64,000 nt of DNA from Tubulanus polymorphus (GCF_964204645.1 NC_134025.1:15004001-15068000), one strand, 5' to 3'. Shown: positions 16,541 through 64,000, numbered from the stretch's first letter. Notes: generated by a model from the letters alone, not told the origin. Numbers and translations are program-made.

Positions 16541-17041
16541 AATTGCGTCTTGTGACTGAGACTTAATCAATATAAAGAAAATGATGAAATGAGAGAAACT
16601 GGTGCTGCCACCTTGTCCAGTCTAATAAAACAATTTTGAAATATCTAATTACAATTTGATTCCTTTTTAATTGATTTCTATTGAATTGCTTTTCAATCAC
16701 CATGGGTCGAAATGTGAAATAAGAAAAATAAACCATTCGATTTGAGCTGTGTTACTCTTTCATGGGACTGCCTTTTATAAGACTGCCCTTTAGTTTTGGA
16801 ACTGCAACACCTGAAAATCCAAGAAACAAAATTATAGTAAATAGTGTGCAGGTGGATCTTGCCCAGCCCCACATTCACACTGGCTTTCTTGTACCGCGCC
16901 AGTTACACCTAATGGGGGAACTGCTTGGCGCCCCTGGCAAGTGACTGAAAATTTTTGGCTATAGATGGCGCCACCATTTACAATATTTTAGCGTCTGCTT
17001 TTATGGGATTTACGGTAGTTTTTACGACTCTCCCTGTCACA

Positions 17042-41189: not shown

Positions 41190-41904
41190 GCTATGTCGCA
41201 CCGCCATCTATCCACCAGTCCCTTTTGGATTGCTAAGTATCGCCAGGTACCATCTATAGACAATTTACGGGAGCTACCACCCGCTATAGTCCCCTATTCT
41301 TAAATCGCACCTCGCTGCAACCTCTACAACAGGTAAGCCTATTCCTGATTGTCTGGTTAGAAGTTCGCCAGCCCACTCAGTTGTTCGGAATTCTGACACT
41401 AAATTCCTGGATGCTGGGGTAGGGTCTGATTTCAATGAGGATCCGGTCCCAGAAGCGGCAATTCCTTCTGGGGTCGTTCCTGTCGCGAGCAATTTTGGGT
41501 TGCCCCATATGATGGGGACTTCCCTGGCTCGCAATGTATCTCAGTCCCGTTCAGTTTTATCCGAACCAGCGGGGGACATGCCATTTAGAGCGATGATTAT
41601 AGAGTTTTTTGTCAAACACGGGGCAACTCGCGCTAAGCCCACAGCAGCTCCTCTGGTCGGTGAGTCAATGGAAGCTTATCGCCCTCAGGATTCCGATCTT
41701 AACGTTTTACGGGAATCGTCAGCGGTTTCAAGAGAATGGGCTCGATTGGATACGCAATTATGGGGCGAATGTCGCCCTGGAACGTTTTCGTTTCCCCCTC
41801 CAGAACGGGGTATGAAATCTGGGAAATATTTTAGTTCAACCGATCCACCTATAGGCGCATTTCGCTCGGCGTATTACGCAACTCCAGGTGCTGTGGATCA
41901 CAGT
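41190..41904 (+). pseudogene. DIRS gag middle segment
   Basis: GC-richer frame ending YYATPGAVDH; continues in frame at 61507 (HIPLSARGQAYL) when the Polinton-like insert is removed. Confidence 0.6.
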
Positions 41905-41905
41905 C

Positions 41906-42283
41906 ATTGGTCGCTCCACTTCGCTACCGCTCCGCTCCGCGACCAATTGATTTATTTACAATACACAAATTCATATAATCAAATGTATTCAAATAATAAT
42001 AATTATTCTGTTATTCAACTGAAATACACACGGTTATGAAAATATATTATAGTTTTAAATTACTTTTAATATTTGTTTTTAATGAACTCGACCATTCAAC
42101 CTTTAACCTGAAAGCCCATTACCCCTATTACTCTTAAAATAATCATATACATGAATAACATTTAAATTGACAGATTATTCAATATAAAAGTATATATTTA
42201 CAACATTATTTCAATATTCATATTTGTGTGAGTTAGATTTTAAACATTAAAAGTGTTAGTAAAGTGTGATTGAAATAATGCAT
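41906..42283. repeat. Left TIR (outer ~185-bp fold-back arm missing)
   Basis: Reverse complement of 60945-61323 with few substitutions. Confidence 0.9.
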
Positions 42284-43184
42284 AGCTGTTTATACTAGAA
42301 CATGATTCTATTTGAGCCTATATACATTTCATGTAATGAACTATTGAATAAATCTATAAATTCACGGCTGTTACAGCTGTTACTATGACGCCGAGACATA
42401 TGAGTCATTATTGCAAACGTGTAGAGAACACTCTAGAACCGGAACCAGATGACGTGGCAAGAAATGAACAGGCGCTGTAACATTACGCTCAGGATATTCT
42501 ATCTCTCGAAACGAAATTAGGAGTTTATAGTTTACAATTCTAAATCTAAATGTAAGTACTGTTTTTTGTAGTTATTGGGGCTATTAAATATGAAACCTTT
42601 AGATATATTTAAGTGTATTTAGTATATCTTTTAGATGGCTAGAGTTGCCGCTAATATCTTTTAGATAAATAAAACGCCATACGCATCAAGAAGTGATAGA
42701 GAAACTCAAGATACTCTTTCTGACCAGGGAAGTGTGATGAGATGGAATACGGACGCTATTGTGCAGCTCTTGTCGAATGTGCGTTGTAATTGCCCTAAAG
42801 CCGATAACGGTTCGTCGCCGAGCGCTTTGTTACGTAACGCGCCGATAAGCGATAACCAGCGAGATCGGGAATCTCCGTAATAAATCAGTTGTTTCCGAAT
42901 ATCGGTTTTTCATCCCATAATAAACTTATATAAAAATTCCTCTGTAAACTGGTTAAACTCAACACCTGATTTCCCCTCATCAATTTTAGTCGATCAACTT
43001 GTATTCACAATTGTCTTAAATTTAAGTGCCCCCTAGTTTGTCTCTTAACTGCTTCTCTTTAATCTGTTTTAGTGTGTAACTGTTTCTACGTTAATTTTCC
43101 TTTAGTTAGTATCATCTCTGATTACTTGAATTAGTCTCTTTGTCTCTGGATTGTATATATCTTTCATAATTTCTGTAGTATTCA

Positions 43185-43230
43185 TTATTTCTGAAGATGA
43201 CTATTAGGACATGGACGAAACGTTGAATAA
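43185..43230 (+). ncRNA. Penelope-type minimal hammerhead ribozyme-like motif (degenerate)
   Basis: TTATTT-CTGAAGA-T-GACTAT..ATGGAC-GAAA-CG-TT-GAATAA: CUGANGA and GAAA cores, stem I TTATTT/GAATAA, imperfect stem II. Confidence 0.45.
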
Positions 43231-43839
43231 ACTACTAACATTTTTGGACTTTTTCGTTATCATTGTGGGATTCTCTCTACATCGCTTCAGACGGATATAG
43301 TGTTTTATCAATCGTGATATCGGTTCTTTCCGCTGTATTAAAATGGCAGCGGTTGTCAACGAAATTATAAATGATGACGATTTTGACGATCTATTCTTTG
43401 ATAGTGACGAATTGGTTCAGATCGATACGGAAATATTACGGGAATCCTCTGGATCAGGATCAACTAATTCGGCCGATTCTAGTGAGTGTTATTCCTTTTG
43501 AATCAATGAAATATCGGAATAGTTTCCACCTAATTGCAGGCACTTCTTTCCTTTTCTTATTCATATAGGTACTTCTCAGGCTCAGCTGACCAGAGACTGC
43601 GATCTGAACACGAGAAAACACACATACAGGTATTTTTTACATTTATTTTTATAATCAATACAATCCTTTTAGGTTATAAAATAATAAACGAATACAAAAA
43701 ATAATACATAAACATAATATAAAAAATCCAGATAAGTACATGTTAAAATAATAATCATTATTATTATTTTCGCAGGAACACTATATATTTGGAAAAGGCT
43801 ATGACTGAAGTGATTAACCATCGAGTATTTAAATTCAGT

Positions 43840-44172
43840 TCAAATGGAATGGCAGCAGTACATTATGGAAAATCGATCGATAAAATTTTGACTACAAATA
43901 AGTCGCCGTCCAGACTTGGAATTAACCAGTGGTTTACATGTCCATTGTTTTAATTTGATAGTAACAGGGACAGTTTTTTTAACGTTTTTGTTCTTACGCC
44001 ATTTTTGTAATTTGACACGACACATATTACAGATATATATCGGGTACTGTTCAGTATCATCATCAAAATCAATGTTGAACAACTCCTTCACATGGCTTTT
44101 GAAATTATTTTTATCGATAGGACGACGATCCGGAGGTTTCGCATTTTTTCCACACAATCGACAAAGATCCAT
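43840..44172 (-). pseudogene. RAG1/Chapaev N-terminal-like C4 zinc-binding domain fragment
   Basis: LCRLCG..FNIDFDDDTEQYPIYICNMCRVKL resembles CRxCG..FxIDxxxD...HP..FCxxC. Confidence 0.55.
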
Positions 44173-45618
44173 GACTAAAAACAAAAAAAGGTTAATTAAA
44201 TGAGATTGCTGATGCTATTTAGGCAACTTTGTTTATATGGGGGACAATAATTTGTAGGCCTAATGTAAGCGTTATTAAGTAACATTATTATGTAGTAAAT
44301 ACACATTTTAAAGATCATACTTCGTGTATATGTTTGTGTCGTAACATAGCAACATGACGTCAGAAACGAAAGCTGCGCGAGTCTGGGCCGAAATATTTGA
44401 CATCTTCAAGGCCCAAATAACGCTAAACCCGGAATCGGAACGAACTGGCAAAAACATATGTTTAACACATAAAAACAGACTTTAATCACAATATAAATAC
44501 TTAATGTTCCGATACCGGGTTTCGGAGATATAGAAGAATAAAAATACATACCTTTTTGGACAAATTTTACGAGAAATTGTTGAATTTCAACCGATTTTCG
44601 ATAGAAAAATATGTGCATACAGAGCCACTTCCACGTTGTTCAATGAACTGCAGTGCGCATGCGTAGTATCGATCGCAGAACATTTATCTGGCTAAAACTA
44701 TTGCGGGTTGTTCTGCGACCGAATCAAAGTTGATGTTGACTGGTGTTCAGCTGGTAACACACACTCGATAAGCGTAGCTTACTGCTGTTGCGGTAACCTT
44801 TGATGTACGGGCTGAATTGAATAGCCTACATCCGGCAATTAAAAGCGTCCGTATTCCATCTCATCACACTTCCCTGTTCTGACTGAGGAATCAACAGCAA
44901 TGGATATCGAACCAATAGAAATTAGCACAAGAAACACAAGAATCGCCAAAAGATCGACGAAGAAACTATATAAGAATTTCAAAAACATTAAGACTCCAAT
45001 GATTAGGTTTAACATTTATTGATGTAGTTAAATATTTACCAGCAATTGAAAAAATGTTTGTAATTATAAATTGTATTTATAGAAATCAAATGATGTATTG
45101 GAAGAAACGGCCGAACAACTTGTATAATGTATTGTGTAAATCTGATTGGTGAATTTTTATGTTCAGTCGTTTCTATTATGATTAGCGCATGCGCATTAAG
45201 CAAAAGCGCGCATAAATGGCCGCATGTAACGCATGTGACGAGGACATGAATGCGTTTGAATTTTCTATGTTCGGTCGTTTCTATTTTACAGAATTTATAG
45301 AATGAATATATAATTATGATTAACACATGTGCATTAAGCAAAACCGGCCATAAATGGCCGCATGTAACGCATGTGTTGTTTCTATTTTACAGAATTTATA
45401 GAATGAATATATATTTATGATTAGCGCATGCGCATTAAGCAAAAGCGCGCCTGTATGTCCGCATGTGACGCGGGTATTGTAACTAGTATGATTTAGATAT
45501 CAAGGAATCGAAACTGACTTATCAAAAGCAGCGAGGAATGAAAAAGGATGACGTTGGTCGAAGAAATGGAAGAGGATTCTAAAATATTAACCAATTTAGT
45601 AAAAAATACGTATAATAA

Positions 45619-46119
45619 ATGGAACCAGAACAACCACAAACTATCAATATTACAAATAACACTGGTGTTATAAATATATATTACAAGAAGTGTTCTAAAT
45701 GTGAATTAGATAAATTAGCTTTAACAGAATTTAGTAAGCGTAAGATTAGCAAAGATGGTTTTCAATATTGCTGTAAAACTTGCACTAAACTATATACCAA
45801 ACAATATCGAGAAGATAATATAGAACATTATAATTATTATATGGCAGAATATATGAGAGAAAGATATCAAACAGATACAGTCAAACAGTTACCAATATCT
45901 AAATTTAACATGAATGATGAATACAATAAAAAACTTATTTGGGGTTGGAAAAATTTAAGACCTTTAGAAAAGAAGGAAAACATAATTAAATCTAATAAAC
46001 TAGATTTACAGTTATATTTAGAACAGTTAACAAAGGCAAAGAAATTTATTGATCAATGGAACAATGATCCAAATAATGAACAATACGTTGAGGAATTTGA
46101 TATCAAGGATCCGAAATGA
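45619..46119 (+). CDS. Zinc-ribbon + HNH/endonuclease-VII-like protein, probably internally deleted
   Basis: KCSKC..EF..DGFQYCCKTC and LPISKF..WKNLRPLEKKENIIKSNK; the expected HIDH segment is absent. Confidence 0.55.
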   Translation: MEPEQPQTINITNNTGVINIYYKKCSKCELDKLALTEFSKRKISKDGFQYCCKTCTKLYTKQYREDNIEHYNYYMAEYMRERYQTDTVKQLPISKFNMNDEYNKKLIWGWKNLRPLEKKENIIKSNKLDLQLYLEQLTKAKKFIDQWNNDPNNEQYVEEFDIKDPK

Positions 46120-46417
46120 CTTATCTGGACAGTTATAATTACTGCTCCTAATAGATAAACAAAAGTAGTGAGATATCAAATAGAATTCAAATAAAATATA
46201 TTAAAAATTACATATCTTCAACAAGCTAGTATTAGTTATTGTTTTTTTAATACTTTCTTTTCAAAAAGAATACTTTATATCACAAATAAAAAATACTAAA
46301 AAAACAATAACTAATACAAATTCTTTACCTTTAACTAAGCTAGTATTAATCTAAAGAGATACTGGTATCATTTTATAATACTTATAATATTTTTCTTATT
46401 AAATTTCTCTAATATAA

Positions 46418-46989
46418 ATGTCAAAGAAATCGAGTAAGAATAGTATTGATATTGAAAAAACATTAGATGATTTGGGCATTAGTGATAATAAGGATATTCC
46501 GGCCAAAATTGAAAATAATATTCAAGTTAATTGTAATATAGATTATGAATACTATTTATATTGTAAACACCATCTTGAACTATTCAAGAATTAGATGCTA
46601 TGAAACCAGATAAAGTAATAAAATATTTTAAGATTTATGAAGAAGCTAGATTAGCTAGAATAAATGATTCTATTTCAGATGGTATTGTCAAATGTTATTC
46701 TAAGTTATGTAACCAGTTAATACCAATTGATGATGAAAATAAATTATATAGTGATTTGAAAAATGACTACTTAGTTATGACTGAATTACAAAAATGGGTT
46801 GGTTATGCTTCATTTCAATTAGGATCGGTTATGACATTAATTTCTACTGGTGTCATAACATTTTCGAACATTAAGCCTATGGAATATAAATCAGGTAAGA
46901 ACGAAACAGATGAACGAAACGCTGTACTACAACCAAACGTCGAAACAGAAAATGAATCAGAACAAAAATTAACTAAAATAAATGAGTGA
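46418..46989 (+). pseudogene. Unknown Polinton-like virus protein (frameshifted)
   Basis: TAAATG start at 46418, continuing into ORF 46600-46989. Confidence 0.55.
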
Positions 46990-47350
46990 TAGCGTTAAGA
47001 AAAAGGCTAGATCCGAGAAACAAATTAAATGGGCAAGAGAATTAGGTAAAAGATCTTCAGAATTAAAAAAAGCTAAGAAAAAGAAATTAACTGATATAAA
47101 TGAATCACAGACTTTATCTGATATTGATTCAAATAATAATCCATCTAATTCTTCTAATGCTGGAAGTAATTATAAATTATATATTACAATTGGATTAGTA
47201 ACAGTTATTATATTATCCGGTGTAATATATAAATCAAAATTCAAATCTGACGATAAAGATGATTCCAATGACAATAAACCTATCATACCAGAAAATAAGT
47301 CAAATGATAAAGTCATTGAAAATAAACCAAGATTATTATTAATGGATTAA
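46982..47350 (+). CDS. Basic N-terminus + single transmembrane protein
   Basis: RSEKQIKWARELGK; hydrophobic LYITIGLVTVIILSGVIY. Confidence 0.7.
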   Translation: MSDSVKKKARSEKQIKWARELGKRSSELKKAKKKKLTDINESQTLSDIDSNNNPSNSSNAGSNYKLYITIGLVTVIILSGVIYKSKFKSDDKDDSNDNKPIIPENKSNDKVIENKPRLLLMD

Positions 47351-47356
47351 AATAAG

Positions 47357-48475
47357 ATGAAAAAAGAACAATATTTAAGAGAGTTATATTATAACCCAGA
47401 AAGTGAAGTATCATATTCTAACGTTTCAGAATTATGGAATAAAATTAAATCTGATAATGAAAATGGTGATGGTGCCGTATGGCACCCACATTGTGGTATA
47501 AAATATAGTGAATTGAAATCATGGTTACAAAATCAACCAACATATCAAATCCACAAGAAAATGGATAAAACTTATTTAACAAGAAAAGTTATGGTTTCAT
47601 ATATCGATCAACAATGGCAAGCAGATTTAATTGACATGAAGAACTTAGAAGAATACAACAAAGGATATTTCTGGATACTGAATGTTATAGACATATTCAG
47701 TAGATACGCATGGTCAATTCCAATCAAAAATAAAACTGGTATAGAAGTAACAAATGCTTTTAAATCAATATTTAAAGAAGCTATTCCAGATAAGATACAA
47801 TTTGATGAAGGTAAGGAATTTTATAACAAACATTTCAAAAAACTATTATCTGATAACGATGTAGATTATTTTTCAACACACTCAGATAAAAAAGCATCTA
47901 TTATAGAAAGATTTAATAAAACATTGAAAACTAGAATGTGGAAATATTTTACTGCTAATGAAACGTATAAATATATCGATGTATTAGATGATTTAGTGAA
48001 AGGTTATAATAATTCTAAACATAGTTCTATAAATATGAAACCTATACAAGCTAGAAAAGAAGATAATTCGGAAATAGTTTGGAATAATTTATATGGAGCA
48101 TTTGTTACACATGATTTTGGAGAACCTAAATTTAAAATAGGACAACACGTAAGAATATCTAAATATAGAAAAACCTTTTATAAAGGTTATACCCCAAATT
48201 TTACAGAAGAAATATTCAAGATTAAAAAGATAATATTAACTAAACCATTTGTTTATAAATTAGAAGATCTAAAAGATGAAGAAATATTAGGTTATTTCTA
48301 TGAACAAGAATTATCACTTGTACCAAATCCAGATGAAATAGAATACAAAATAGAAAAAGTATTGAAAACAAAAACTCTTAAAGGAAAAAAGTATTCTTTG
48401 GTGAAATATAAAGGATATGATGATAAATTTAATGAATGGATTTTATCTAGTAAAATTAAAAGAATAAATGAATAA
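47357..48475 (+). CDS. Retroviral-like (rve) integrase with C-terminal chromodomain
   Basis: WQADLIDM, IDIFSRYAW, QFDEGKEF, KASIIERFNKTLK (D,D,E); YKIEKVLK..YSLVKYKGY..FNEWI chromo; intact 372 aa. Confidence 0.95.
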   Translation: MKKEQYLRELYYNPESEVSYSNVSELWNKIKSDNENGDGAVWHPHCGIKYSELKSWLQNQPTYQIHKKMDKTYLTRKVMVSYIDQQWQADLIDMKNLEEYNKGYFWILNVIDIFSRYAWSIPIKNKTGIEVTNAFKSIFKEAIPDKIQFDEGKEFYNKHFKKLLSDNDVDYFSTHSDKKASIIERFNKTLKTRMWKYFTANETYKYIDVLDDLVKGYNNSKHSSINMKPIQARKEDNSEIVWNNLYGAFVTHDFGEPKFKIGQHVRISKYRKTFYKGYTPNFTEEIFKIKKIILTKPFVYKLEDLKDEEILGYFYEQELSLVPNPDEIEYKIEKVLKTKTLKGKKYSLVKYKGYDDKFNEWILSSKIKRINE

Positions 48476-49071
48476 AGATTTATTTATATTTGAACCGCAT
48501 AATATGTTAGTTACTGGTGTAACCAATTGTGGTAAAACACATTTCATATTAGATTTGTTAGAAACTGTTTATAAGAATCATTTTGATAATATAATATTAT
48601 TTTGTCCTACTTATGAAATGAATAAAACATATAATAGAGATATAGTTAAGATAAAAAAGTTTATTATATTAGATCCTAAAAAAGTAAAAGAAAATTTAGA
48701 TAATTGTATTAAAATAGCAATTGATACTTATAAAGGATCAAATACATTATTCATTATAGATGATTGCGCAAATTTACATGATTCAAAAGTGAGAGAAAGT
48801 GAGTTATGTTATCTAGCTTTCTCTGGGAGACATTTTGGGATAACAACATGGGTTTTAAATCAAAAATATAATTCAATTGTTAAAGACTTTAGGGAGAATA
48901 TAAGATTTCTTTTATAACAAAGATAAAAAATCTATGCAACAATCATTGGAAGAAAATCAAATTATACCTACTGAATTACATGATGAATATATGAATAAAT
49001 TAAAGAATAATAAAGGTTCAAAATTATTACTGAGACTACAATTTCCCTATGAATATAAATTTATAAAATAA
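48468..49071 (+). pseudogene. A32/FtsK-like packaging ATPase (frameshift ~48910)
   Basis: Walker A GVTNCGKT, Walker B LFIIDD, SGRHFGI, NQKY. Confidence 0.9.
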
Positions 49072-49093
49072 CTATTTATATATCTATCTATCT

Positions 49094-49400
49094 AATACGT
49101 ATTAAATACGTATTAAATACATTAATACTTAAAACCCCCTTTTTTAAAATAAATATTATTCATACAATTTTCAACCAATTTATTTTTATTTTTTTCAACT
49201 AATATATGAATAAGAAAATAATAAAGGTTATTTATTATTACTGAGGTTTCAATATAAATTTAAAAAAGAAATATAATTTAAGGTATTTTCAAATAATACG
49301 TATTAGATACGTATTAGATACGTATTAGATACGTATTAAATACCTTAATACTTAAAACCCCCTTTTTTATTTACTATTATTTTATACAATTTTCAACCTT
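49094..49400. repeat. Two blocks of 11-bp iterons (AATACGTATT palindrome or GATACGTATT variant), between convergent gene cassettes
   Basis: 49094-49145 and 49296-49370, each followed by TAATACTTAAAACCCCCTTTTTT. Confidence 0.85.
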
Positions 49401-49402
49401 TA

Positions 49403-50275
49403 TTACTTTTTGAGTGTTAGATAATCACTTTCTGAATCACTTTCACTATCAGACCCTAACAATTTATTCAAATGCTCTACCGTATCTTCATAAATAATTG
49501 GTTTATTGATATACTTATTAGTCATCTCAACTATATCTTTATTTTCTGATTTAAGTTTGATAGAATCTTTATTATCAATGCGCTTTCCTGTATTTTCATT
49601 ATTATCTTTATTAGTGTTTGCTCCTAATATTTCATTTACAGTGTTTGATCCTAATATTTCATTAGCATTGGTTAGATCTAATTCATCTTTATTAGGTGTT
49701 GCTAATAATAAATCTTCATATATTTTTTCACCATTTACTTTTTGATTAGAAACAAACTTTGTAACATATCTAAATGGGTGTTCTATAAATTCTTTTAAAC
49801 CAACACGTTCTATAACATTATTTATATGTACCCTTGTATTCATATGTTTATTCCAATTTGATGGAGCGTTTGAAAATTCACTTTTACAATATCCACAATA
49901 ATTTCTATTTTCACTAACATTTAATATTATTTCATTATTAGATGTAGAAGGTATTACATTATTAGATGTAGAAGGTATTACATTATTAGATGTAGAAGGT
50001 ATTACATTATTAGATGTAGTAGGTATTACATTATTAGATGTAGTAGGTATTTCATTATTAGATGTAGAAGGTATTACATTATTATCAATTACATTACTTA
50101 AATTATCAACAACTTCACTTTTATTATTATTGATTTCTATTAGTTTAGTTTTATAAATTTTGAAAATAGGATCAAATATCAAAGCTATATTACAAGGTAT
50201 TACATAATATAAACCATCATTATTTTCATGTGTATCGATGTATGGAATATGTTTATATACTTTACCTCCTTCCAT
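49403..50275 (-). CDS. Unknown protein with 8-aa tandem repeats (NNVIPSTS x6) and a C2H2-type finger
   Basis: 24-bp repeats ~49930-50085; CGYCKSEF..WNKHMNTRVH. Confidence 0.7.
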   Translation of the reverse strand: MEGGKVYKHIPYIDTHENNDGLYYVIPCNIALIFDPIFKIYKTKLIEINNNKSEVVDNLSNVIDNNVIPSTSNNEIPTTSNNVIPTTSNNVIPSTSNNVIPSTSNNVIPSTSNNEIILNVSENRNYCGYCKSEFSNAPSNWNKHMNTRVHINNVIERVGLKEFIEHPFRYVTKFVSNQKVNGEKIYEDLLLATPNKDELDLTNANEILGSNTVNEILGANTNKDNNENTGKRIDNKDSIKLKSENKDIVEMTNKYINKPIIYEDTVEHLNKLLGSDSESDSESDYLTLKK

Positions 50276-50307
50276 TTATATAATAAATTTTTATTAAAGT
50301 TAAAATT

Positions 50308-51464
50308 TTAATACATAACACTATTTAATTGAGAATTTACAATATTTAATTGCGCGTCAGATATAATATAAATATGCATTTTAAAATTTTTGATTCCTTT
50401 ATTCTTTGTCATGAATAATTGTATTCCATCTTTAGTGTTCTGTAGTTTTTTTCCAGAACCATGTAATCTAAAATCTAACCATAATGCATATTTATTACCG
50501 GTATAATAATCAATTTGATTAATATTACAATTTTCAGATGATTTCACTTTTTCATTCATAAAATGTTTTCTAATTTCTGGCCATTGATCAATCATTCTCA
50601 TTCCTTGACAAAATATTTTATTTGCTATTCCTTCGATAGTTATTTCTACTTTTGTTATTTCAGGATTATAATAATTATCAACATTTATTGCGCCATTAGT
50701 ATATGTTGCAATGGTAAAAAATATTAATATACCTTTAATAGATCTTCTTGGGAAGTTATTATTCTCATTAATAATTTCATCATTTGCATTAATAGTTACA
50801 ATTTTAAATTTATCAATATAATCATATAATAATGAAAATCCTTGATTGTATTGAGTTTGAATTATACTTGAAATATTTTCATCAGTTACTGTGTCATATT
50901 CTAAACATATATTCGATAATTTATAACTCATATCGTTATTAACGCTAGATATTACAATTTCATTAACAGGAGCAAATGTTATCTCAAATATAACGTCTTC
51001 TTGAATTGCGTATTCATATAAAGGTGCATTGTTATTTATCAATTCAAAGTCTAATGGAATTGACAGCTGGATATAGCTGGAACTGATTGGATTCCTTGGA
51101 ATATCATATTATTTCTATTTTCTTTAGTTAACCATAAATCTTTATAATGCATAAATAAATTATAATCATCTAATGAGAAAACAGTTTCTGGACCAATCTT
51201 TATTGTTAATTTTTTAATCAAATATCTTCCAACATTATCAACAACATAATTATTATTATTACCGATTACTTTTATATCAGCTGATAAATAAATACTATTT
51301 GGAACATAAAAAGTATTTTGTGTTAATCGAGGAATTCTAACATATAAAGTTTCATCGGGATTAATATTAGAAGGGTTATGAGTAATTATATGATGTGATC
51401 TTTCTGCTTTAATAGCATTAGATATTCTATGATTCTTCGAAGGACTTATATAACTCCCACTCAT
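50308..51464 (-). pseudogene. Major capsid protein (double jelly-roll predicted), frameshift/deletion ~51050-51080
   Basis: HNPSNINPDETLYVRIPRL, IPLDFEL, YKLSNICLEYDTV, FPRRSIKGILIFF, YNPEITKVEITIEG; typical of Polinton-like MCPs; fold not verified. Confidence 0.75.
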
Positions 51465-51484
51465 TTATTTAACAAAAAAATTAA

Positions 51485-52945
51485 TTATTTATTTTTTATC
51501 ATATTCACTAACCCAAAAATAATAGCACTTACAACTGTAATTAAAAATAAAATAATATGTTCAGCAGCAAAGTTAATAATGTTTCCTGCAGATTTCAATA
51601 TAAAACCAACAATTGATGCAATAACTCCTGGTAAAGCTGCAGCAGATTTTTTAGATAGTTCCCATAGATATTTTGCTAATTTCTTTAAACCATCTTTAAC
51701 TTTATCTTGTATAGAATTATTATCATTCGGGGGTTTATCCGGTTTATTTGGAGTAGGAGTAGATTTTAAAGCATTCCATATTGCTAAACCAATTGTTGTA
51801 AATAACATAGTTACAGCTGTTAGAATTGAAAGAATTGGTATTCCTTCTAATTTAAATAATAATCTTATTCTATCTTTCAATGATATTTTAGAATCTGGTT
51901 TTATCAACAAATCTTTAAGAACATCTTTTAATCTTTTAAAATTATTACCAAATTCTTTTAATAATATATCTCTTTCACCTTTCAGTACTTCTAAATTATC
52001 TTTTAAATTATTAATTTCTTTTTCTAAACCTAATTCTTTTTGCCTATATTCTATTTCATCAATTGCTGGATGGTCTAAATCAGACTTTAATTTTTCTATT
52101 TCTTTATTTTTATCAGTTAATTCTTTTTCTAAATTGTTAATTTTAATATCTCTTATACTTTTTTCATTCGCAATTTTTTCAGCCGATTCTTGCATACCTT
52201 TAATTTCTCTACGTGTTTGTTCAGGATATAATTCTAATTCATCATCAGTTAAATCAAATAATCTATTTGGTAAAAGTTTTTCAGTTTGAACTTCGTTTGA
52301 TTTAGGTTTACTAGTTTTGGAAGTTTTATTCTGTTCAGAAGTTGTTTCTGTTTCTGGATTATCATCGATTATTTTAAATAAGTCATCAATTCTTTGACTA
52401 AATACTCTTATATTATCATCGCTTTCTTCTTGTGTGACATTGGTTATTTCATTACTAATACTTATTCTCTTAATTTTATCTAGACCTAATTTTCTCAAAG
52501 TTGATTCCGCTAATATTTTATTTAGTTTTGTTCTTTGATCAGTGATATCAATATAATAATCACCATCCAAACGATAATAATATTTACCTTTACAAAGTTT
52601 TAATTTTTGTACTAAAAGTCTGGCGCCTCTATCATTTATATTATATCCGGATTCTTTAAATACACGTTGAAAATCATACATAAAATCAATATTTTCAATA
52701 TCTTCCTTTGATAAACCTGGGTCTAAATTTTCAGTAGGTATTCTCGATCTAGTTCTTCTATCAAATTCATCTGTTTATGGGGCTTTAGAACCACTATCTG
52801 CTAAATTAGAATTATATGCTGATTCATTACCATCATCAATATTAGTTTCATTAAGATTAGCACCTGCATCATAATCATCATCAATATATCCTTCATTATT
52901 ATTTCCCATGCCTTCCATTTCATAATCTCCTCCACCTTCTGCCAT
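51485..52945 (-). pseudogene. Coiled-coil protein with C-terminal membrane segments (frameshifted near N-terminus)
   Basis: Start MAEGGGDYEM at 52945; long heptad region; GIPILSILTAVTMLFTTIGLAIW, LPGVIASIVGFIL, IILFLITVVSAIIFGLV. Confidence 0.7.
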
Positions 52946-52961
52946 TTACATAATAAAAAAA

Positions 52962-54286
52962 TTAAAATTTAAAATATAATATTCCTCCGATTACAATTCC
53001 TATACAAGTTAAAGCTAATTTAGTATTTTCATGGGATTTATTATCATCATTTAGTTTAATTATATCATGTTAAATATTATCAGTTTTTATATTTTCTGAT
53101 GTATTGTAATCTTTTATTTTAGAATCATTATTTAATTTAATATTATTAGTTTTAGTTTCAGTTGATTGAATGCATTTTTTATTTTTTTCACCTTCCATTA
53201 ATTTTGGAGCAGTAATAATCTTTTTATTTATATCATTCAATCCAAATGAATTATTTATTGTTGCAGTTTTAATTAGATTATTGTAACCAATCATGTTTCC
53301 CATCTTTAATACTAAATCATTAGAAATAATTAATAGATTAGGGCCTATACAATAATTTAATCTATTATGTGATTTATCTAAATAATTTTGATATCTTTCA
53401 ATGTTTCTGGAATAGATCTATTTTTATCATTATGAATGGAATCTTCAAATAATACTTTGAATTGTTTCTGCGCATCGAATGAAGTGTTATCATTTCCAAC
53501 TATTGGTGATCTTGTTTCAACTTGCGCGCCTAAAATACATATCAAATAAGTTCTAATAGATTGATTTATTCTTTGTATACCTGATTTTGTAAAACCTTCA
53601 CTATTTTCTACAATGAAATTAACCCAACCATTATTATTTTGTTGCTGTATATTATTATAATATTTTGGTAATTCATTCCAATTTAGTGTTCTTATATCTG
53701 AATTTGTCATTATTTTTCCAAATTCTTTAGTATACAATATTCCTAATCCACCCATTGTTCCAATTTTTGCTCTAAAATCTTTATTTGAATAAATATTTAA
53801 TTCATTACATATTTTATAAAACTTAGAAAAATTAATATTATTATTCAATTCTTTAAAATATTTTGAACCTGGTAAAGGACATTCTAATTCATCTAATATT
53901 AATTTTATTTGAAAATATGTATGAAATCTAAAAAGTGATAACATCAATGGTAAACTTGGTTTGTTTAAATGATCATTCCAACTAATTCCACATCCTGTTG
54001 TTGCACAATAAACAGCAAAATTTAATTGGTTCTGCCAATACTTCATATTAGATTTTAATAACCATTGTTTTGCCTCATTTAAATTTTTGAAATTAATTGT
54101 ATACACATGAAATATATTTTCCATCTTTACATGAAAATTATTACTTTCAGTAACATAAATATATAAATCAATTAATGAATTTAAAACTTCATTTCTATAT
54201 GTAATATCTTTATTAAAATCTATTGCTGGAATATTATATTTAATTGATTTATTATATTGGAAAGCTTTTGGAAAACTATCTGCCAT
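52962..54286 (-). pseudogene. Conserved unknown virus protein with C-terminal TM anchor (frameshifted)
   Basis: WQNQLNFAVYCATTGCGIS, FRFHTYFQ, ILGAQVETRSPI; C-terminal LALTCIGIVIGGILYF. Confidence 0.7.
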
Positions 54287-54303
54287 TTATATAATTAAAA
54301 AAA

Positions 54304-54738
54304 TTAATAATTAACTAATTCTTTTAATAATTTATCTTGTTCTTCAACTGTTATATGACCATTTAAACTTATTATATAATCTAGTGTATTCTTTAATTTA
54401 TTAATTTCTTTTATATTAGTTTTAATTTTTTCTTTATTACTTTTTATATTTAATTTTGAACTTATTCCGGTTAAAACACTTGAACTTAATCCTAACACGC
54501 CAATTGATATAGCTAAAGGTGTTAATGGACTGAATATTGCTAGAAATGTTATTACAGAACTAATTGTAACCGAACCACTTATAATCAAATAATATATAAT
54601 TTTAGATTTTAAATATTTTTTCTTTTTTATCTTTAAATCACTTTCAAATTCTAATATTTGTTTTTCTAAATATATTTTTAATTTAGTTTTATTTATATCA
54701 TGAGGAATAATACCAATATTATCAACTTTATCTTCCAT
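54304..54738 (-). CDS. Two-TM-helix protein flanked by coiled coils
   Basis: IIYYLIISGSVTISSVITFLAIF..LAISIGVLGLSSSVLTGI. Confidence 0.7.
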   Translation of the reverse strand: MEDKVDNIGIIPHDINKTKLKIYLEKQILEFESDLKIKKKKYLKSKIIYYLIISGSVTISSVITFLAIFSPLTPLAISIGVLGLSSSVLTGISSKLNIKSNKEKIKTNIKEINKLKNTLDYIISLNGHITVEEQDKLLKELVNY

Positions 54739-54758
54739 TTATTTAGCAAAACAAGTTA

Positions 54759-55181
54759 CTAATTAGTAAACTTATAAGCAACAAATATAACAATAACTGT
54801 TCCCCCTAAAATCCATATTATTTCATATTTCTGTTGTTCTTTACTCGGGGTATAATAATCTGATATTTTAGGTTTGTATAGATGTAATTTTTCTTTATTG
54901 GTTACCGCGTTATATAAACTCATTGCATCATCAACTGATTGAAAATCTCTGTGTGAAATCTTCTGATCATATAATTCTTTGTTAATATAATCCATATAGT
55001 TTTGTCTCTTTTCTCTATATTCTTCTGCAGCTTTATTGTATTTCTCTAATGCTAAGTTATGTCTTTTTTGTTCTGTTAATGATCCATTTTTATCAATATG
55101 TTTAAATAAATAACCACCACCAGTAAATGCAAAAGCGTTAACAATTGCCGATCCTATAATAGTTATAATTGCAGAAGCCAT
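54759..55181 (-). CDS. Protein with hydrophobic Gly/Ala N-terminus, coiled coil and C-terminal TM
   Basis: MASAIITIIGSAIVNAFAFTGGGYLF..EQKRHNLALEKY..IIWILGGTVIVIFVAYKF. Confidence 0.75.
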   Translation of the reverse strand: MASAIITIIGSAIVNAFAFTGGGYLFKHIDKNGSLTEQKRHNLALEKYNKAAEEYREKRQNYMDYINKELYDQKISHRDFQSVDDAMSLYNAVTNKEKLHLYKPKISDYYTPSKEQQKYEIIWILGGTVIVIFVAYKFTN

Positions 55182-55196
55182 TTATTTAGTAAAATA

Positions 55197-55407
55197 ATTA
55201 CGCATTTATATGGGAGGAATATGATTTTAGTTAAATTAGATAAAGTAACTGCTAATGTTAATTTTAAAATAACATTTATATCAAATCTATCAACATTAAC
55301 ACTTCCCATTTTGAATACTTTTTTAATACCATTGAATAACCAACAGTTCCAACTGATAGTAGTGCGCCATTATATAATCCAGTTATTATCCACTTATTAT
55401 CACTCAT
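55197..55407 (-). pseudogene. Small hydrophobic protein (frameshift in A-run ~55322), not in ORF track
   Basis: MSDNKWIITGLYNGALLSVGTVGYSMVL/KVFKMGSVNVDRFDINVILKLTLAVTLSNLTK; TAAATG start. Confidence 0.55.
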
Positions 55408-55749
55408 TTATTTATCAAAAAAATTACTATCATCAAAATATTTAGTTATCTTATTCATGATTAATTCAACATTTATTTCATTACTACTTTTATGATTATC
55501 ATATATTTTGGATAATATGTTTTTAATATCATCAATAATTCCATGTTCATTTAATTCATAATATTCTAAAGGTGATTTAATTAAATCAATTACTTTTTCT
55601 ATATTATAATTTTCTTTATTAATCATTGATGCATTGTTAAATGATTTACTTTTTATATCAGTAATTACATCATTTAGTTCAATTCTCATTTCTTTACCAT
55701 GTTTAAAATCAAACCCAAAACATATACTCGGTCCAACAGTTATATTCAT
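55408..55749 (-). CDS. Unknown virus protein
   Basis: 113-aa ORF with TAAATG start in the same cassette. Confidence 0.6.
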   Translation of the reverse strand: MNITVGPSICFGFDFKHGKEMRIELNDVITDIKSKSFNNASMINKENYNIEKVIDLIKSPLEYYELNEHGIIDDIKNILSKIYDNHKSSNEINVELIMNKITKYFDDSNFFDK

Positions 55750-55773
55750 TTATATAGTGAAAAAAATTACTCT

Positions 55774-56522
55774 CTACATCTTATAACTAATTCTTAAATT
55801 ACAGGAAAGTTATTCAAATCAATTAAATATCCATTGTGATTTCTAATCTAAAATTATTAAAACGAGGAATGCATGGTTTGAAATCACATTCTGTTAAATT
55901 ATAATTTATTTGCGTTCCAAATTCTTTAACATTCTTCAATTGTAAAATGTTTAGTAAACCAGAATTACAAGTTATATATTTAGTTGCTTCGAATGTTTTT
56001 GTTGGATCGATTAAATTGCAATAAATATAAAAATGCGTGTAAGGTATTAAGTTTGGTGTAACAGCATCAATATTTGTAAAAGATCTATCTGGAAGAATTC
56101 CTAACAGTTTAGCTATAGGTTTTTTTTACCATAAATTTATGTTTTTCACTATTAGACAACCTTATCTTAATTCTATCAGAACTATCACTTTTTAAAAATC
56201 TAATACTAAACCCAGAACTACTACCTAATTTGTGCCAGGCTTTTCTATTAATTTCTTGTGCTAATGTATCTACATTATATAACCCCGGTTTTAAATATAT
56301 ATAGACCCATGAATCTATGTGTCTATTAAAAACTAAAAAGGCTCTATGTTCAATAGTTTTATTCGATATATTATAAAAAGAATTACATAAACTTATATTA
56401 ACTAATTTTAAATCTACACAATTCTTGAATTCTCTATCTAATTGTACTAGTAAATTATGTGATTTATAATTAGTAAGTCTTCTAGAATCAACAAATATTC
56501 TGTATTCTTTTAATTCTACCAT
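55774..56522 (-). pseudogene. Minor capsid (penton)-like protein, frameshifted
   Basis: IFVDSR, LKLVNISLCNSFYNIS, LKPGLYNVDTLAQEIN, then AKLLG..YIYCNLID..NGYLIDLNNFPV after frameshift ~56120. Confidence 0.65.
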
Positions 56523-56573
56523 TTATTTTACATATTTTATTCGAAATCTATTTCATGGTGCCCTTTTTCATTC

Positions 56574-56891
56574 TTACCTTTGTATACGAAATAGAAATCT
56601 CCAGAACATAATTCTTCTAAAGTCTTCACTTGATAATCTATGAAATCTATCCGGTAAATATGTTCTGAATTTATATGTATTTCCTTTTAATCCTTCATAT
56701 TCTAAGTGTATAACTAATTTATCTCCATAGTTATTAGTAACTGTATCAATATTTGTAATTAGATATTTCTTATGAATTGTTAATTCTGTTAACTTTTTGA
56801 ATTTATAATCTACAGATTTTACATTTGTGATATCTTTAATTCTATCTAGAAATAATTTGTTGTTCTCACTGTGCGCTTGTTTACTCTCCAT
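56574..56891 (-). CDS. Small protein, possibly OB-fold ssDNA-binding
   Basis: FKKLTELTIHKKYLIT..TNNYGDKLVIHL..RTYLPDRF pattern; adjacent to pPolB; function is inference. Confidence 0.45.
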   Translation of the reverse strand: MESKQAHSENNKLFLDRIKDITNVKSVDYKFKKLTELTIHKKYLITNIDTVTNNYGDKLVIHLEYEGLKGNTYKFRTYLPDRFHRLSSEDFRRIMFWRFLFRIQR

Positions 56892-56920
56892 TTATAATAC
56901 ATATTTTTATTAAAATTTGA

Positions 56921-59900
56921 TTAACACGTTAGAATTCTTTTCATTATCTCGTTCTCTTTTGTTTCTTCTCTTTTAAATTTTAAGTATTCATCTAAATTGC
57001 AACCATATGCAACTGTATGAATTCCATCATCTAAAATATATCTTTTATCATCAAATGGGTTTAGACTTATCTTTTCAATTTCTTCAATAAACATTTCATG
57101 ATCTTCAGATCTTAAACATCTCATCTTATGTTTTCTAACTTCTTCATTGAATATACAATTGATGTAATCTTTGAAATGAATATTCTTTTCTACTACACTT
57201 TTGGTTATTCCTTTTAACTTTTTAGCTTCACGTTCTTTGGTTTTATATGAATACATTTTTAGATCTAATACCAATGAATTCAATCATTTCTTCACCGCCT
57301 AATTCATCTTTGAATTTACCGGGAACTTTTTTATTATCATTGCTAAACAATTCATGATTTTTAGGATAGTTACTGAAATCAAAATGATGTTTTAATGTTT
57401 TTAAATCATCAGTTATGTTATCAGTTTTTATCTTTAATATGTAACTGTCAGTATCAAAATATAATATTTCTATATGCTTTTCTCCAAACAATGGTTGTAA
57501 TACATTATAATAGAATTCATACATTAGTAATTTTGATAATTCTAAAACTGAAGCGCCAACATAGATTGGTTTATTAAATTTCATTGATGTTCTTCTCATC
57601 TTAACTGCGGCTAAATTTTCATCAAATATTCTGTTACCAATGAACTTAGGATATGTTTGTAAATGCCTTATCCTTTTGCCATTACTAACTAACTGAATAT
57701 CATTTCTATTTCTAATATTTTCACAAGTCTTACCATAGAATGCATTATTCATTAACTTGAAGAAATCTTTTTCGAAATCAGTTTTAGCTTCAGTTCTCTG
57801 TTTGGTGTTAAAATCTATATATTTTTCTAACCACTTAGATTGACTAAATGAAATATATCTATGTACTTTTTTTAAGAATAGTTCCTTGTTTTAGATAAAA
57901 CGTTAACATTCTGTAATGTACTACATAATTATATTTATCTTCTTGAGTTACCATTAACTTTTCTGTATGAATATGATTTTCGGGTTTAATTCTTTTTTGA
58001 TAATTTGATAATTCTTCATGTGTTACAGTTTTATGTTCGGGACAGTAAGCTAGATTTCTAGATTTAAATTTTTTATCTTCAGGATATTCTAAATCTACAA
58101 CAAAGAAGTAACCAGTATCTGAATCATCTGCAATATCTAGAATTCTTTTCTTCCAATCAAATTTATCATTATTTTCATTCTGTAAAACTTCAGTTAATTC
58201 AAATACTCCATAAGGTTGTGGTTCCATCATTGCCCAACCATACAAATTATTTGCATCTATATATAATATCTTATATCCAGGGTTATCATTTACATTGAAA
58301 TATCTATCACCTAATACACCTGAAACTCCTCCTCTTATAGATTTTTCAAATAATAATAATTGATCTATATTTGTTAACAAATCCATTTTCATATCTGTAA
58401 ATTTTAATCCACAATCCCATGTTAATCCTGGACTTGAATAACAATGACAAGGATCAAAATTAAATAATAATAATACATACATGATTTTCTATTTTGAAAT
58501 GATTCCAAATATTCAATGTTCTATTATATACTTCATCTTTAACATATTCATTTTTTAATTCATCGTAGAATTGTTCTTTTAATAATTCAGTTATATTAAA
58601 ATCATTATGTGATTTATAAAATGAATATGGAATTGCGCCTTTATATCTCATTATTTGAAAATCATCATTATTTGGGTAGTGTTGCTTCAATATTTTTAAT
58701 TCATCATCAACTAATGATTTTGATAAGTTATCTTATGAACTATTTAAAAATCTATATGAATCTATAAATCTTAGGCAACCAAATTGGAATGATATATAAT
58801 TCTCAGATGTTTTAGCTAACATTCTAAATTTATAAGTTGGTATTTTATCTTTTGATCTATTTGAATTTAATATTTCTATTTCATTATTGATTTCTTCTAT
58901 TTTTTTGCATAACTGTTTGATAAATAAATGTGCATCATATCCTGATAGATTATGAAATATAACTGGTACAAAGTTAATTTTCTTAGCTTGTAAGTTACAA
59001 TTCTCATGTGCGGCGCCTCTAAACTTTCCATTCAAATGATCATGGTCTCTTACTTTTTTATCTTTATAATTAAATATCTTTTCACAATAATAACATTTAT
59101 CTGCAAACTCAAATGCTTCTTTTTCTTCTTCTGTCATTATAATTTCTATATTTGTATTCAATAATTTACTAAATCTTATTTCATATTCAATTAATAAGTC
59201 ACAAAAATGATTGATAACATTTTCATTTCCGTAATCATAATATTCACTTTCAATTAGTTCTGGATAATCAGATTTAATATATAACCCGAAAGCTGCGGCT
59301 GATTGATGAATCTTTTTAAAAGTATTTGTTTTTGGTGATTCTTCTGAAAAATCATTTTCATTAGAATTTAATTCCTTTCTTTTATAATATATTTCTTTTC
59401 TATCTTGATCAGTTAATTCTTTATTTAATGATTCAAAATCTCCATATATAACAAATGGTACTTTATTTTTGTAATCATATTTTTTGAATTCTAATATTTT
59501 ATCTTTTTCATTTGGTAAAACTAATTTACAATAATCATGATTTTCACATAATTGTTTATGATTTAATAATGTACTTTCATTACTGAATCTATGTAAACAT
59601 TTTCTACAAAGATATATTTTATGGTGATCATTTTCTGATTTAAAAAATAAATCTATTTGTTTAATCCACATATAATGATTCTCATAATATAGTATATCTA
59701 TAACGTCGTTTGAATCATAATCTTTTGATAGGTATAAAGGTTCTAATGTATAATGTTTTATGTTGTTACCTTTTGTATTTGGTAATTTGATTAAATCAAA
59801 TACATTTATCTTTATATTATTATCTCTTTCTATTTTTGGGATGTTTTTAATTATAACAGGATACTTATCTATCTTATAATTATTTTCAAATTGTTTATAA

Positions 59901-60890
59901 TTTGTTAATCTAAAACTATGTTGTTTATAATCTTCAACCGGGTGTAAACAACTTATTATAGCCCATAGAAAACATTTATCATCTTCATTTTGCTCATTTA
60001 TTACAGCATTAGTTTTAAATGGTAGTTTAATATAACTCGATGCTTCAATATCTGGTTCTTTATAATATGATACATTATTTTCATCTATTGGTTTTGATTT
60101 AGTTAACTTATTATATTTTGTGTTATTAACATGTAAAGTCATAAATATTATTTCATCAAATATTAAACCAGATCCTTCAAAATATTTCTCTTCTATTTTA
60201 GTTTTTACTTCATTATAACATTTATCTAATTTATGATCTATATGTTGTTTTGAAATAATATGTTGTGAATGAGAATTTATATTATATATTGGTTTATCTT
60301 CAGATTTTATGAATTTAACTTTAGAAGATATACTTATTTTAGGATATTCAACATCAGTTATTATTTTTATTATTTCTTTCATATTTTCTAAATGTTTTTT
60401 ATTTCCTTCTAATGTTTTTCCTTTATGAAATTTAAACTCGATAGCTGCTGGGCCAATATCACTTTTAAATGCTTCGGTTATCTCTATATCTTTTTTATTA
60501 TCTAATGAATTAATATATTTTCTTACATCTTCCATGTATGGTCTTTTATTGTTTGATTTATTTTTTATGCTTTTAATTGTCTTCTGTTTCTTATCATTAT
60601 CTTTATCAAAATAATCTTCACCTAAAATATCATTATTCTTATTTCTAATATGACTTTGTGATTTTAAATGTTCATTATAATATCTTTTATCACTGAATGA
60701 TTGATTACATGTATCACATTTGTATGTTTCTTTTTCATTCTTTAATTCATCTAATTTAGATTCTAATATATCATCTTTATATTCTAGTTTCAATTTATTC
60801 TCTAAATGTGTTTTAGTTTTATTGTGTCTTTTTTTTGGATTTATCTATATTGATATTACATGTTGGGCAGTAGTACTTATTTGCTTCCAT
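56921..60890 (-). pseudogene. polB: Protein-primed family B DNA polymerase (group-2 Polinton type) with N-terminal zinc fingers, vOTU-like and endonuclease VII-like domains; several frameshifts
   Basis: YGDFES, FHNLSGYDAH, FIDSYRFL, YIDANNLYGWAM, KLMNNAFYGKT, YFDTDS, KKLKGI, DDKRY; DDKCFLWA..HYMWI; CYYC..VRDHDHLNGKFRGAAHENCN. Confidence 0.95.
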
Positions 60891-60944
60891 TTTAATACTA
60901 AATTTTTTATTAAAATTGATATTAGAAGTTCAATGATTTATATC

Positions 60945-61506
60945 ATGCATTATTTCGATCACACTTTACTAACACTTTTAATGTTTAAAAATCTAACTCA
61001 CACAAATATGAATATTGAAATAATGTTGTAAATATATAATTTTATATTGAATAATCTATCAATTTAAATGTTATTCATGTATATGATTATTTTAAGAGTA
61101 ATACGGGTAATGGGCTTTCAGGTTAAAGGTTGAATGGTCGAGTTCATTAAAAACAAATATTAAAAGTAATTTAAAACTATAATGTATTTTCATAACCGTG
61201 TGTATTTCAGTTGAATAATAGAATAATTATTATTATTAAAATATATTTGATTATATGAATTTTTGTATTGTAAATAAATCAATTGGTCGTGGAGCGGAGC
61301 GGTAGCGAAGTGGAGCGACCAATTGATTTGATACAATATGCTTTTAAAATTTAAAGTATTGATATCTTAGAATCTATATTTAGTTATAATATAAAATGCA
61401 CACGGTTATGAAAATGTATTATAGTTTTAAATTACTTTTAATGTTTTGTTTTTTAATGAGCTCGACCGTTCGACCTTTGGCTTGAAAGCCCATTACCCCT
61501 ATTACT
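60945..61506. repeat. Right TIR (~560 bp) whose outer ~410 nt (61096-61507) form a fold-back
   Basis: 61096-61205 pairs with ~61395-61507; apical stem AAATCAATTGGTCG/CGACCAATTGATTT around a purine-rich loop. Confidence 0.9.
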
Positions 61507-61962
61507 CACATTCCGTTGTCGGCTCGGGGTCAGGCTTATCTTGTGTTAGCCTCCCGTCAGTCAGTTATGGACTCCAGTTCCAAAGCTCGTCTACCGGATA
61601 TTGTGTCCAATGCTTTGCTGAGAGCTCCATTGGGGACGTCTTCACGTCTCTTCCCCGGTTGGTGCGCTCCTGTTTCCGTCGAGCTGAGGAAGATTCGGGA
61701 GGTCCAGACCAAGTCCGCCGTCCGAACTCCGTGGAAAAAGCGTTCTGGTCCGACGCCGGCGGCGCAAGGTTCGACACGGACGCAAACAGGACCAACTCAA
61801 ACTTCAGCGCTTTCTCAGGTGGCAACGGATGCCGGTTGGAGAACTAGCGCGCAACTTCAACAATCATGTCAAACCTTGACCAGTCGTAACAGTTCCGGTT
61901 CGTATCGAGGCAAGGGGAAGGCTCCAAAAAGGGGCTCTTCCTTTTGGAAAAACTCGAAATGA
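61507..61962 (+). pseudogene. DIRS gag C-terminus
   Basis: LLRAPLGTSSRLF motif and basic Gly/Arg-rich tail typical of DIRS ORF1. Confidence 0.65.
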
Positions 61963-61975
61963 ATTCTCGGGACCA

Positions 61976-63750: not shown

Positions 63751-63839
63751 TTTCGAATTTCCCATCGCTTCTGTCTCAGGGGAACTTTCGGCATCATCCA
63801 AACAGCCAGTGGTTAAATCTGCTCGCCTGGCCAGTGTCC

Positions 63840-64000
63840 AGTGATCCTTGTCAGCTTCAGGCTTTTCAGAAAGACTTTATTTTTGCTGTTCTTGGCTTGC
63901 TCGGCCCGTCGCTCTTGAGATTCATGCGCTTTCAGTCCGACAAGTTCTGTTGTCTTCGGGCCAGCGAAGGAATTTGTTTCGCTGCGGCATGCTTTGGAGT
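63840..64000 (+). pseudogene. Heavily deleted tyrosine recombinase remnant
   Basis: RPVALEIHALSVRQVL resembles the YR RAHxxRA..S region; position after the MT domain as in DIRS. Confidence 0.35.

Follow-up and report, generated by a model that had tools for sequence, protein, structure and literature searches.

The DNA examined here is a stretch of 64,000 nucleotides (nt) from Tubulanus polymorphus (GCF_964204645.1 NC_134025.1:15004001-15068000), called the window below, and it contains a decayed, high-copy endogenous Polinton/Maverick at about 41902-61506. The element carries a protein-primed DNA polymerase B (pPolB), an rve integrase, terminal inverted repeats (TIRs), a double-jelly-roll (DJR) major capsid protein (MCP) and a packaging ATPase, by which it is recognised as a Polinton. 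Nearly all of its genes begin at the word TAAATG, with further words upstream, and, to judge from the sequence, this promoter signature of an animal Polinton family is genuine, remarkably clean and spread across the clade. The original prediction, which described an endogenous Polinton-like virus at 45595..60915 transcribed by a poxvirus-like polymerase, drew the element too short: the TIRs lie at 41894-42283 and 60945-61335 (376 of 389 positions agree), the right end is at 61506, and several genes are broken. The GC content is 21-26% across 45.5-61 kb, as against 31-50% in the left flank. The transposons and a zinc-finger exon in the window mark the host as an animal, the word 'invertebrate' in the original prediction being a presumption.

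The right end is marked by 1774 reads that continue beyond 61506 into unlike flanks (agreement 0.34). At this end, 61096-61507 forms an imperfect palindrome of roughly 410 nt, the outer arm of which is missing from the left end; terminal palindromes have been described for protist elements, most of them without pPolB (bioRxiv 2026.07.28.741278). Inspection of the left junction sequence places the Polinton within the gag-like frame of a DIRS-like retroelement, the halves of which are found at 41290-41901 and 61507-63844, with a reverse transcriptase at 62111-63153. Polinton/Maverick insertions are accompanied by a target-site duplication of 5-6 bp. Here, the junctions can be read as CAC with AGT...ACT ends or as TCACA with GT...AC ends, and the left end is rearranged.

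In one genomic read run under the same species label (1.9 Gb of reads), the median depth over the element was about 509 across 28 bins, and most reads were 90-99% alike. This would correspond to tens to hundreds of aged copies in the genome. Structural variants occur among them: well over 100 reads link the HNH-like gene to the 5' region of pPolB on opposite strands (46004/60781), and many reads omit about 130 nt of the inner right repeat (60930-61062). Upstream of the first gene, at 45136-45475, lie tandem, GC-richer repeats with GCGCATGCGC and TAAATGGCCGC words, at a depth like that of the element. In the present copy, the MCP, ATPase, pPolB, minor capsid protein (mCP) and four other genes are broken.

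The genes are listed in the table below. The capsid protein is 74-83% identical to its intact relative P0001, whose structural model (pLDDT 87) matches capsids of nucleocytoplasmic large DNA viruses and of mavirus with E values of 1e-15 to 1e-11; the match to the mavirus MCP (TM 0.51) is below those to PBCV-1 and SGIV. The product of 55823..56522 is probably the mCP, as suggested by its size, position and conservation. For 56574..56891, the nearest named cluster is PF17427 Phi29 SSB (score 0.83), which is a lead only. The pieces of pPolB are 28-47% identical to that of the near-complete relative L025, itself a DNA_pol_B_2 match (E 7e-14). No Pfam protease match, and hence no adenain-type protease, was seen in 22 open reading frames (ORFs) or fragments of the element or in 14 ORF scans of L025. 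Protease loss had been considered as a hallmark of the window's group and was rejected, as L025 likewise lacks the gene. The family F5 protein of L003 (model pLDDT 64) has no fold match in BFVD, PDB or a wider search, and because of this a very divergent protease is still conceivable. No RNA polymerase or transcription factor was recognised among the element genes, and the scan gave no Rfam match.

Genes and other features of the Polinton (positions counted from the first nucleotide of the window)
Feature	Position	Strand	Start and remarks
Left TIR	41902..42283		Without the outer palindromic arm of the right end; aligned to 60945-61335
Probable secondary DNA-transposon insertion in left end	42714..44887		47-nt inverted arms; zf-AD ORF 43840-44172 (zf-AD E 2e-7)
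Zn-finger/HNH-like gene	45619..46119	+	Intermediate-type start AGTAAAAA-N9-TAAATG; HNH in relative L001 weak (E 0.0055)
Conserved Polinton gene, function not assigned, broken in two frames	46418..46989	+	TAAATG; T-run weak here, present in L001, L003, L004
Small predicted membrane protein	46982..47350	+	TAAATG start overlaps end of upstream gene
rve integrase with chromodomain	47357..48475	+	TAAGATG (TAAATG in L001); rve E 2.5e-9, Chromo E 9e-5
A32-type packaging ATPase, broken near 48910	48468..49071	+	Intermediate-type start; Pox_A32 E 1e-11
Variable gene with 24-nt tandem repeat and predicted Zn finger	49403..50275	-	Intermediate-type start, likewise in L001 and L004
DJR MCP, broken near 51050-51110	50308..51464	-	Late-type start T7-GTTAAA-TAAATG
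Coiled-coil/membrane protein conserved in these Polintons (family F4), broken near 52775	51485..52945	-	Late-type start
Conserved 440-aa-class protein (family F5), three pieces	52962..54286	-	Late-type start
Two-helix membrane protein, SLATT-like	54304..54738	-	Late-type start; SLATT_fungal E 0.004, under cut-off; weak likeness to family F9
Conserved 140-aa protein, hydrophobic N-terminus (family F3)	54759..55181	-	Late-type start
Small conserved gene, 75-78 aa in relatives, broken here	55200..55407 (end approximate)	-	Late-type start
113-aa orphan-like gene	55408..55749	-	Late-type start; four short unnamed relatives, no Pfam family above cut-off
Probable mCP (family F7), broken near 56110	55823..56522	-	Intermediate-type start (late-type in L006, L033)
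Possible single-strand DNA-binding protein (SSB)	56574..56891	-	Intermediate-type start (late-type in L003)
pPolB with endonuclease-VII insert, six pieces	56921..60890	-	AATAAAAAA-N8-TAAAATG; Endonuclease_7 match
Right terminal repeat, imperfect palindrome at its end	60945..61506		Arms 61096-61289 and 61316-61507 (160/182)

Each gene start was re-read and found exactly as first claimed: 14 are TAAATG, with TAAAATG at 60890 and TAAGATG at the integrase. The word is therefore present at 14 of 16 gene starts, compared with 35 of the 605 ATGs elsewhere in the element (Fisher p 6e-15). In about ten cases, tblastn alignment to relatives reaches residue 1-3, and the relative, too, begins at TAAATG; the starts at 52945 and 60890, which have no N-terminal match, are placed by ORF position alone. 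The coding frames of this copy have decayed, and the motif in it is still near-perfect. Most gaps between genes measure 0-73 nt, two genes overlap with adjacent ones, and the TAA serves as the stop of the upstream gene at only 1 of 13 junctions.

The upstream sequences fall into two classes. A strict T-run pattern occurs seven times on the two strands of 45500-60945, always at the seven consecutive starts from 55749 to 51464, so that its assignment to the capsid/membrane cassette was borne out, with no further occurrence in these 15.4 kb. The strict A(A/G)TAAAA pattern occurs six times in the same span, at 45619, 48468, 50275, 56522, 56891 and 60890; the five genes first listed for this class are correct, and the list was incomplete, the ATPase at 48468 being a sixth member. 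One or the other class fits 13 of the 16 starts, and in 5000 shuffles of the 27 upstream nucleotides no more than 6 of 16 did so. The shuffle check is partly circular, as the patterns were derived from the window itself; the relatives provide the independent test. Over 67 starts of the window and its clade (T1, below), a T is found 9 nt before TAAA in 59 and 10 nt before it in 49, and in the second class A[AG]TAA is located 11-13 nt before TAAA.

Through a capsid alignment search, 71 metagenome loci and one genome contig were obtained as relatives. The capsid tree covers 53 of 70 loci, those whose piece was long enough, after removal of near-duplicates, and was built by quick searches with SH-aLRT support only. 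A start entered the count if its ORF was of a recognised family and either of the expected length or cut off by the contig end; of starts identical over the last 20 nt one was retained, and ungrouped loci were excluded. TAAATG was found at 51 of 57 starts in T1, the window's clade (support 99), at all 18 in T2 (support 99) and at two of three in the long-branch L030, as against 0 of 31 in the sister group S and 0 of 76 in the canonical clade. L036 and L037 were first counted as canonical (2/78) and reassigned to T2 after the tree; L061 (T2) and L063 and L070 (canonical) stand outside it. The branching of T1, T2 and S in the tree is compatible with one or with several origins of the motif.

Base composition is not the cause of the motif, since TAAATG is present at 24 of 26 starts in T loci with a GC content of at least 0.35 and at none of 20 in non-T loci with a GC content of 0.32 or less. 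The base at -3 is T at 51 of 57 (T1) and 18 of 18 (T2) starts, compared with 4 of 31 in S and 4 of 76 in the canonical clade. In L001, L006, L010, L014, L035, L038, L041 and L047, pairs of divergently oriented genes have TAAATG on each strand, with 15-30 nt between the two, and intact relatives retain the motif at capsid identities down to about 30-55%. Scans of a viral contig collection gave no relatives of the MCP, F5 or the ATPase.

In vaccinia, late promoters have TAAAT, usually followed by the G of the start codon, and a conserved T at the tenth nucleotide upstream (PMC11980589), and intermediate promoters have TAAA with an AT-rich stretch farther upstream (PMC11980589, PMC5294985). The intermediate core has no strict consensus and is separated by a 12-bp spacer from the TAAA, which is read by the polymerase directly (PMC12917281). 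TAAATG has also been annotated at genes of salmon gill poxvirus (PMC4542343). The element has both arrangements: TAAAT(G) over the start codon with a T about 10 nt upstream, and, at six window starts, an AT-rich core, a spacer of about 12 bp and TAAA, the latter being a loose test given the lack of strict consensus in vaccinia.

As a control, TAAATG starts were counted in 172 viral loci that two promoter-pattern scans had retrieved (52 loci, and 120 loci from 14 of 64 parts), with starts matching the search pattern excluded; these scans yielded no Polinton relatives. The poxvirus-like contig L245 has TAAATG at 10 of 14 starts, with both upstream types, while the other viral loci have it at 70 of 988 starts pooled and the AT-rich ones at 18 of 179 (113 loci with at least five starts). 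L245 is poxvirus-like by Pox_A32, Pox_ser-thr_kin and Pox_L3_FP4; it was retrieved by a chance match in the coding end of its kinase (3501-3527 within 1980-3536), and the retrieval itself is no evidence. This contig (L075/L245) is divergent, with 17,556 bp, 19% GC, A32, F10 kinase, L3 and NAD ligase, the kinase relatives being 41-53% identical; nothing connects it with the present host. With the exact placement of the words, their clade-wide conservation independent of composition and a poxvirus-like positive control, a promoter architecture of poxvirus type is supported.

The best reading of this architecture, to which a probability of about 0.6 may be given, is that a co-infecting virus of poxvirus type supplies the RNA polymerase that transcribes active members of the family. 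According to this model, the DNA of the element would reach the cytoplasmic factory of the helper, where the helper polymerase would start within the AAA of TAAATG and add a slipped poly(A) leader as in vaccinia. The promoters with an A-rich core (pPolB, SSB-like, ATPase, mCP and nucleases) would become active ahead of those with a T-run (MCP and the membrane/virion block). The element would then replicate with its own pPolB and package with its own MCP and ATPase, and between helper infections the rve integrase would insert it into the host genome. A T at -3 is poor for scanning translation on a long leader. It agrees with an RNA whose 5' end lies in AAA and to which a slipped A leader is added, and such leaders have been described for vaccinia and for yeast virus-like elements (PMC6211774). 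An early-type AAAWNTGAAA word lies within 100 nt of only 1 of the 16 starts. From poxvirus biology, only the post-replicative machinery would be expected to serve a parasite that enters as naked DNA.

Several points weigh against this reading. Helper dependence is deduced from the promoters: neither a helper nor a transcript was found, although the host genome was not searched for a helper, and no poxvirus gene or polymerase subunit was found in the element or in the scanned ORFs of its relatives. Of the poxvirus-like transcription first proposed, the promoter architecture stands and the helper polymerase remains inferred. The deoxynucleoside kinase that L003 carries under a late-type start (10343-10981) has three more element-like homologues at 60-67% identity, and there is no named poxvirus relative among its 38 matches. 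The high copy number means repeated nuclear integration, which a purely cytoplasmic cycle alone does not explain, and a nuclear copy would have to reach the cytoplasmic factory. The large-virus loci L127 and L188 reach 2 of 6 and 3 of 10 TAAATG starts, and with few non-pox large eukaryotic DNA viruses among the controls, the distinction from iridoviruses and asfarviruses has been probed only lightly. Of 29 starts in AT-rich canonical elements, 19 have T(A)3-8 before ATG; as this word also contains TAAA, these elements are no clean negative for the initiator. The loci in question (L022-L029, L034, L039 and L057) may show an A-rich translation context or another viral initiator.

The two-stage programme fades with distance. 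The intermediate-type word is found at 8 of 27 starts in L001-L005, 1 of 24 in other T1 loci and 0 of 16 in T2, and T-runs at 17 of 27, 10 of 24 and 3 of 16, respectively. The mCP, the HNH-like gene and 56891 change class among orthologues, and most other orthologues keep theirs in the closest relatives. Thus, the proposal of two expression stages is partly supported: class is conserved for most genes near the window, but three orthologue sets switch and the A-rich word is rare or absent in distant TAAATG elements. It appears firm only near the window and is weaker than the helper reading. Two further tests were of no help to the helper reading either. AATAAA poly(A) signals are not discriminating, with 63 seen and 66 expected in the coding strands of the element and 54 versus 57 in AT-rich canonical elements. 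The depletion of TTTTTNT in T1 is shared by S and by canonical elements, A and T runs being avoided generally. The word T6-N7-9-YAAAW is absent from the terminal repeats, which therefore have no poxvirus-like resolution site.

The strongest rival, which is unlikely, keeps the dependence on a viral polymerase and has as helper some large DNA virus other than a poxvirus, or a cytoplasmic element, whose initiator is TAAA(T). In yeast virus-like elements, TAAAN serves as initiator together with a poxvirus-related polymerase (PMC6211774), a point that also tells against a poxvirus in particular, and some TAAATG starts occur in L127 and L188, as noted above. Helpers may also differ within the family: in the sister Polintons L016 and L020, TATA lies within 25 nt of ATG at 16 of 21 starts, as against 65 of all 734 ATGs, and these loci carry a VLTF3-like gene (Pfam E 6e-4; Atlas 0.89). 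The group with TATA near ATG also takes in L015, L019, L021 and L045. These starts resemble the late promoters of asfarviruses, which hints at a different helper. On the other side, late promoters of asfarvirus type are TATATA (PMC5294985, PMC11788076), only the poxvirus-like contig among the 113 viral loci has TAAATG at more than one third of its starts, and the element matches both upstream geometries of vaccinia.

Somewhat less probable again is transcription in the nucleus by host RNA polymerase II (Pol II), alone or with factors made by a helper or the element, TAAATG being a lineage-specific initiator or a TATA-like word. The family is integrated in many copies, many starts read TATAAATG, and the GC-rich repeats upstream of the first gene contain GCGCATGCGC and AAATGGCCGC words, which we take to resemble host factor sites. 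However, the TATA box of Pol II lies 25-30 nt before the start site (PMC5294985), because of which TATAAATG fused to a start codon is no TATA box for the same gene; RNA would start inside the gene. In addition, the element has no recognised transcription factor, and the base at -3 is almost always T. It is very improbable that the promoters are left over from an earlier existence as a virophage and that the family now spreads in the host without a poxvirus-type helper: the broken genes of this copy and the 90-99% likeness of most reads do speak of age, but the motif is near-perfect amid decayed frames, intact relatives keep it, and a family not expressed from these promoters would have no evident way to spread. 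Equally improbable, and largely refuted, is a role of TAAATG in translation (coupling of stop and start, or a stop that shields the start codon) or its origin as a side effect of AT-rich genes with little space between them, in which a first-ATG-after-stop rule would favour TAA-ATG, given the rarity of TAA as an upstream stop, the divergent starts with the word on both strands, its absence from AT-rich sister loci and the spaced upstream words left unexplained.

The element can be compared with known systems. The yeast virus-like elements pGKL1/2 have, to our knowledge, no capsid and no integrase. They share with the element a linear, AT-rich DNA, a TAAAN initiator and slippage leaders, and differ in encoding their own polymerase and in having early-type upstream elements (PMC6211774). 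With vaccinia, the element has in common TAAAT(G) on the start codon and either a T-run about 10 nt upstream or an AT-rich core with a spacer of about 12 nt (PMC11980589, PMC12917281, PMC5294985); unlike vaccinia, it uses the motif at nearly all genes and has no early class. Animal Polintons/Mavericks described as 'adintoviruses' (Starrett et al., PMC8502044) likewise have pPolB, an rve integrase, an A32/FtsK ATPase, a DJR capsid, membrane-active accessory genes, TIRs and germline copies; the adenain-type protease was not found here, and the uniform TAAATG starts are a difference on the side of the element. The word 'promoter' is absent from the main text of that paper.

Poxvirus hyperparasites have been published in insects, namely the Polinton-like viruses (PLVs) AHEV_PLV1/2, CBEV_PLV1 and Ca_PLV1 from entomopoxvirus occlusion bodies (Barth et al., PMC11296320). 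They, too, are small double-stranded DNA elements with a DJR capsid, proposed as parasites of poxviruses. They encode a cysteine protease, of which the Pfam scan of ORFs found none in the window element, and partly have other replication and integration modules, whereas the element is linked to poxviruses only through its promoters. The main text of PMC11296320 contains neither 'promoter' nor 'motif' nor 'TAAAT'. The virophages mavirus and Sputnik use the late promoter of their helper, and mavirus has pPolB and an rve integrase and integrates in its host (PMC6428243). They have protist hosts, mimivirus-type helpers and one described promoter class; the window element resides in an animal and has a Polinton capsid and two classes of poxvirus-like promoter. 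No report of the TAAATG motif in Polintons was found in the literature searched, which left aside subscription papers including a 2024 review of the polinton-like supergroup, nor was such a motif found for animal Polintons in the accessible text of preprints 2024.03.23.586382, 2026.10.13.758929 and 2026.07.28.741278 or of PMC11788076.

The expression and mobilisation of animal Polintons are open questions, as these elements carry virion genes and their cycle has not been seen. A promoter code matching poxvirus post-replicative transcription makes their expression directly testable, carries the notion of virophages beyond protists and a few insect cases into an animal family integrated in the germline, and leads one to expect poxvirus-type viruses in hosts without described ones. 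A wider proposal, for which the odds are clearly below even, is that some Polinton clades are integrating parasites of poxviruses that use both post-replicative stages, with sister clades wired to other helpers (a TATA initiator and VLTF3-like gene, of asfarvirus type). If it is true, promoter words in endogenous Polintons would reveal which large DNA viruses infect an animal lineage and would predict undiscovered poxviruses; it would also point to a mavirus-like heritable antiviral system in animals. Such a role in host defence is a hypothesis by analogy with mavirus.

A cluster around P0008 holds a 55%-identical capsid protein under Bartonella sp. records, likely a host contamination of assemblies. 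Elsewhere in the window, at 14500-19900, 23100-28400 and 32345-33727, remnants of Harbinger-like DDE and YqaJ-domain transposons, another large degraded DNA element and a C2H2 zinc-finger host exon are found.

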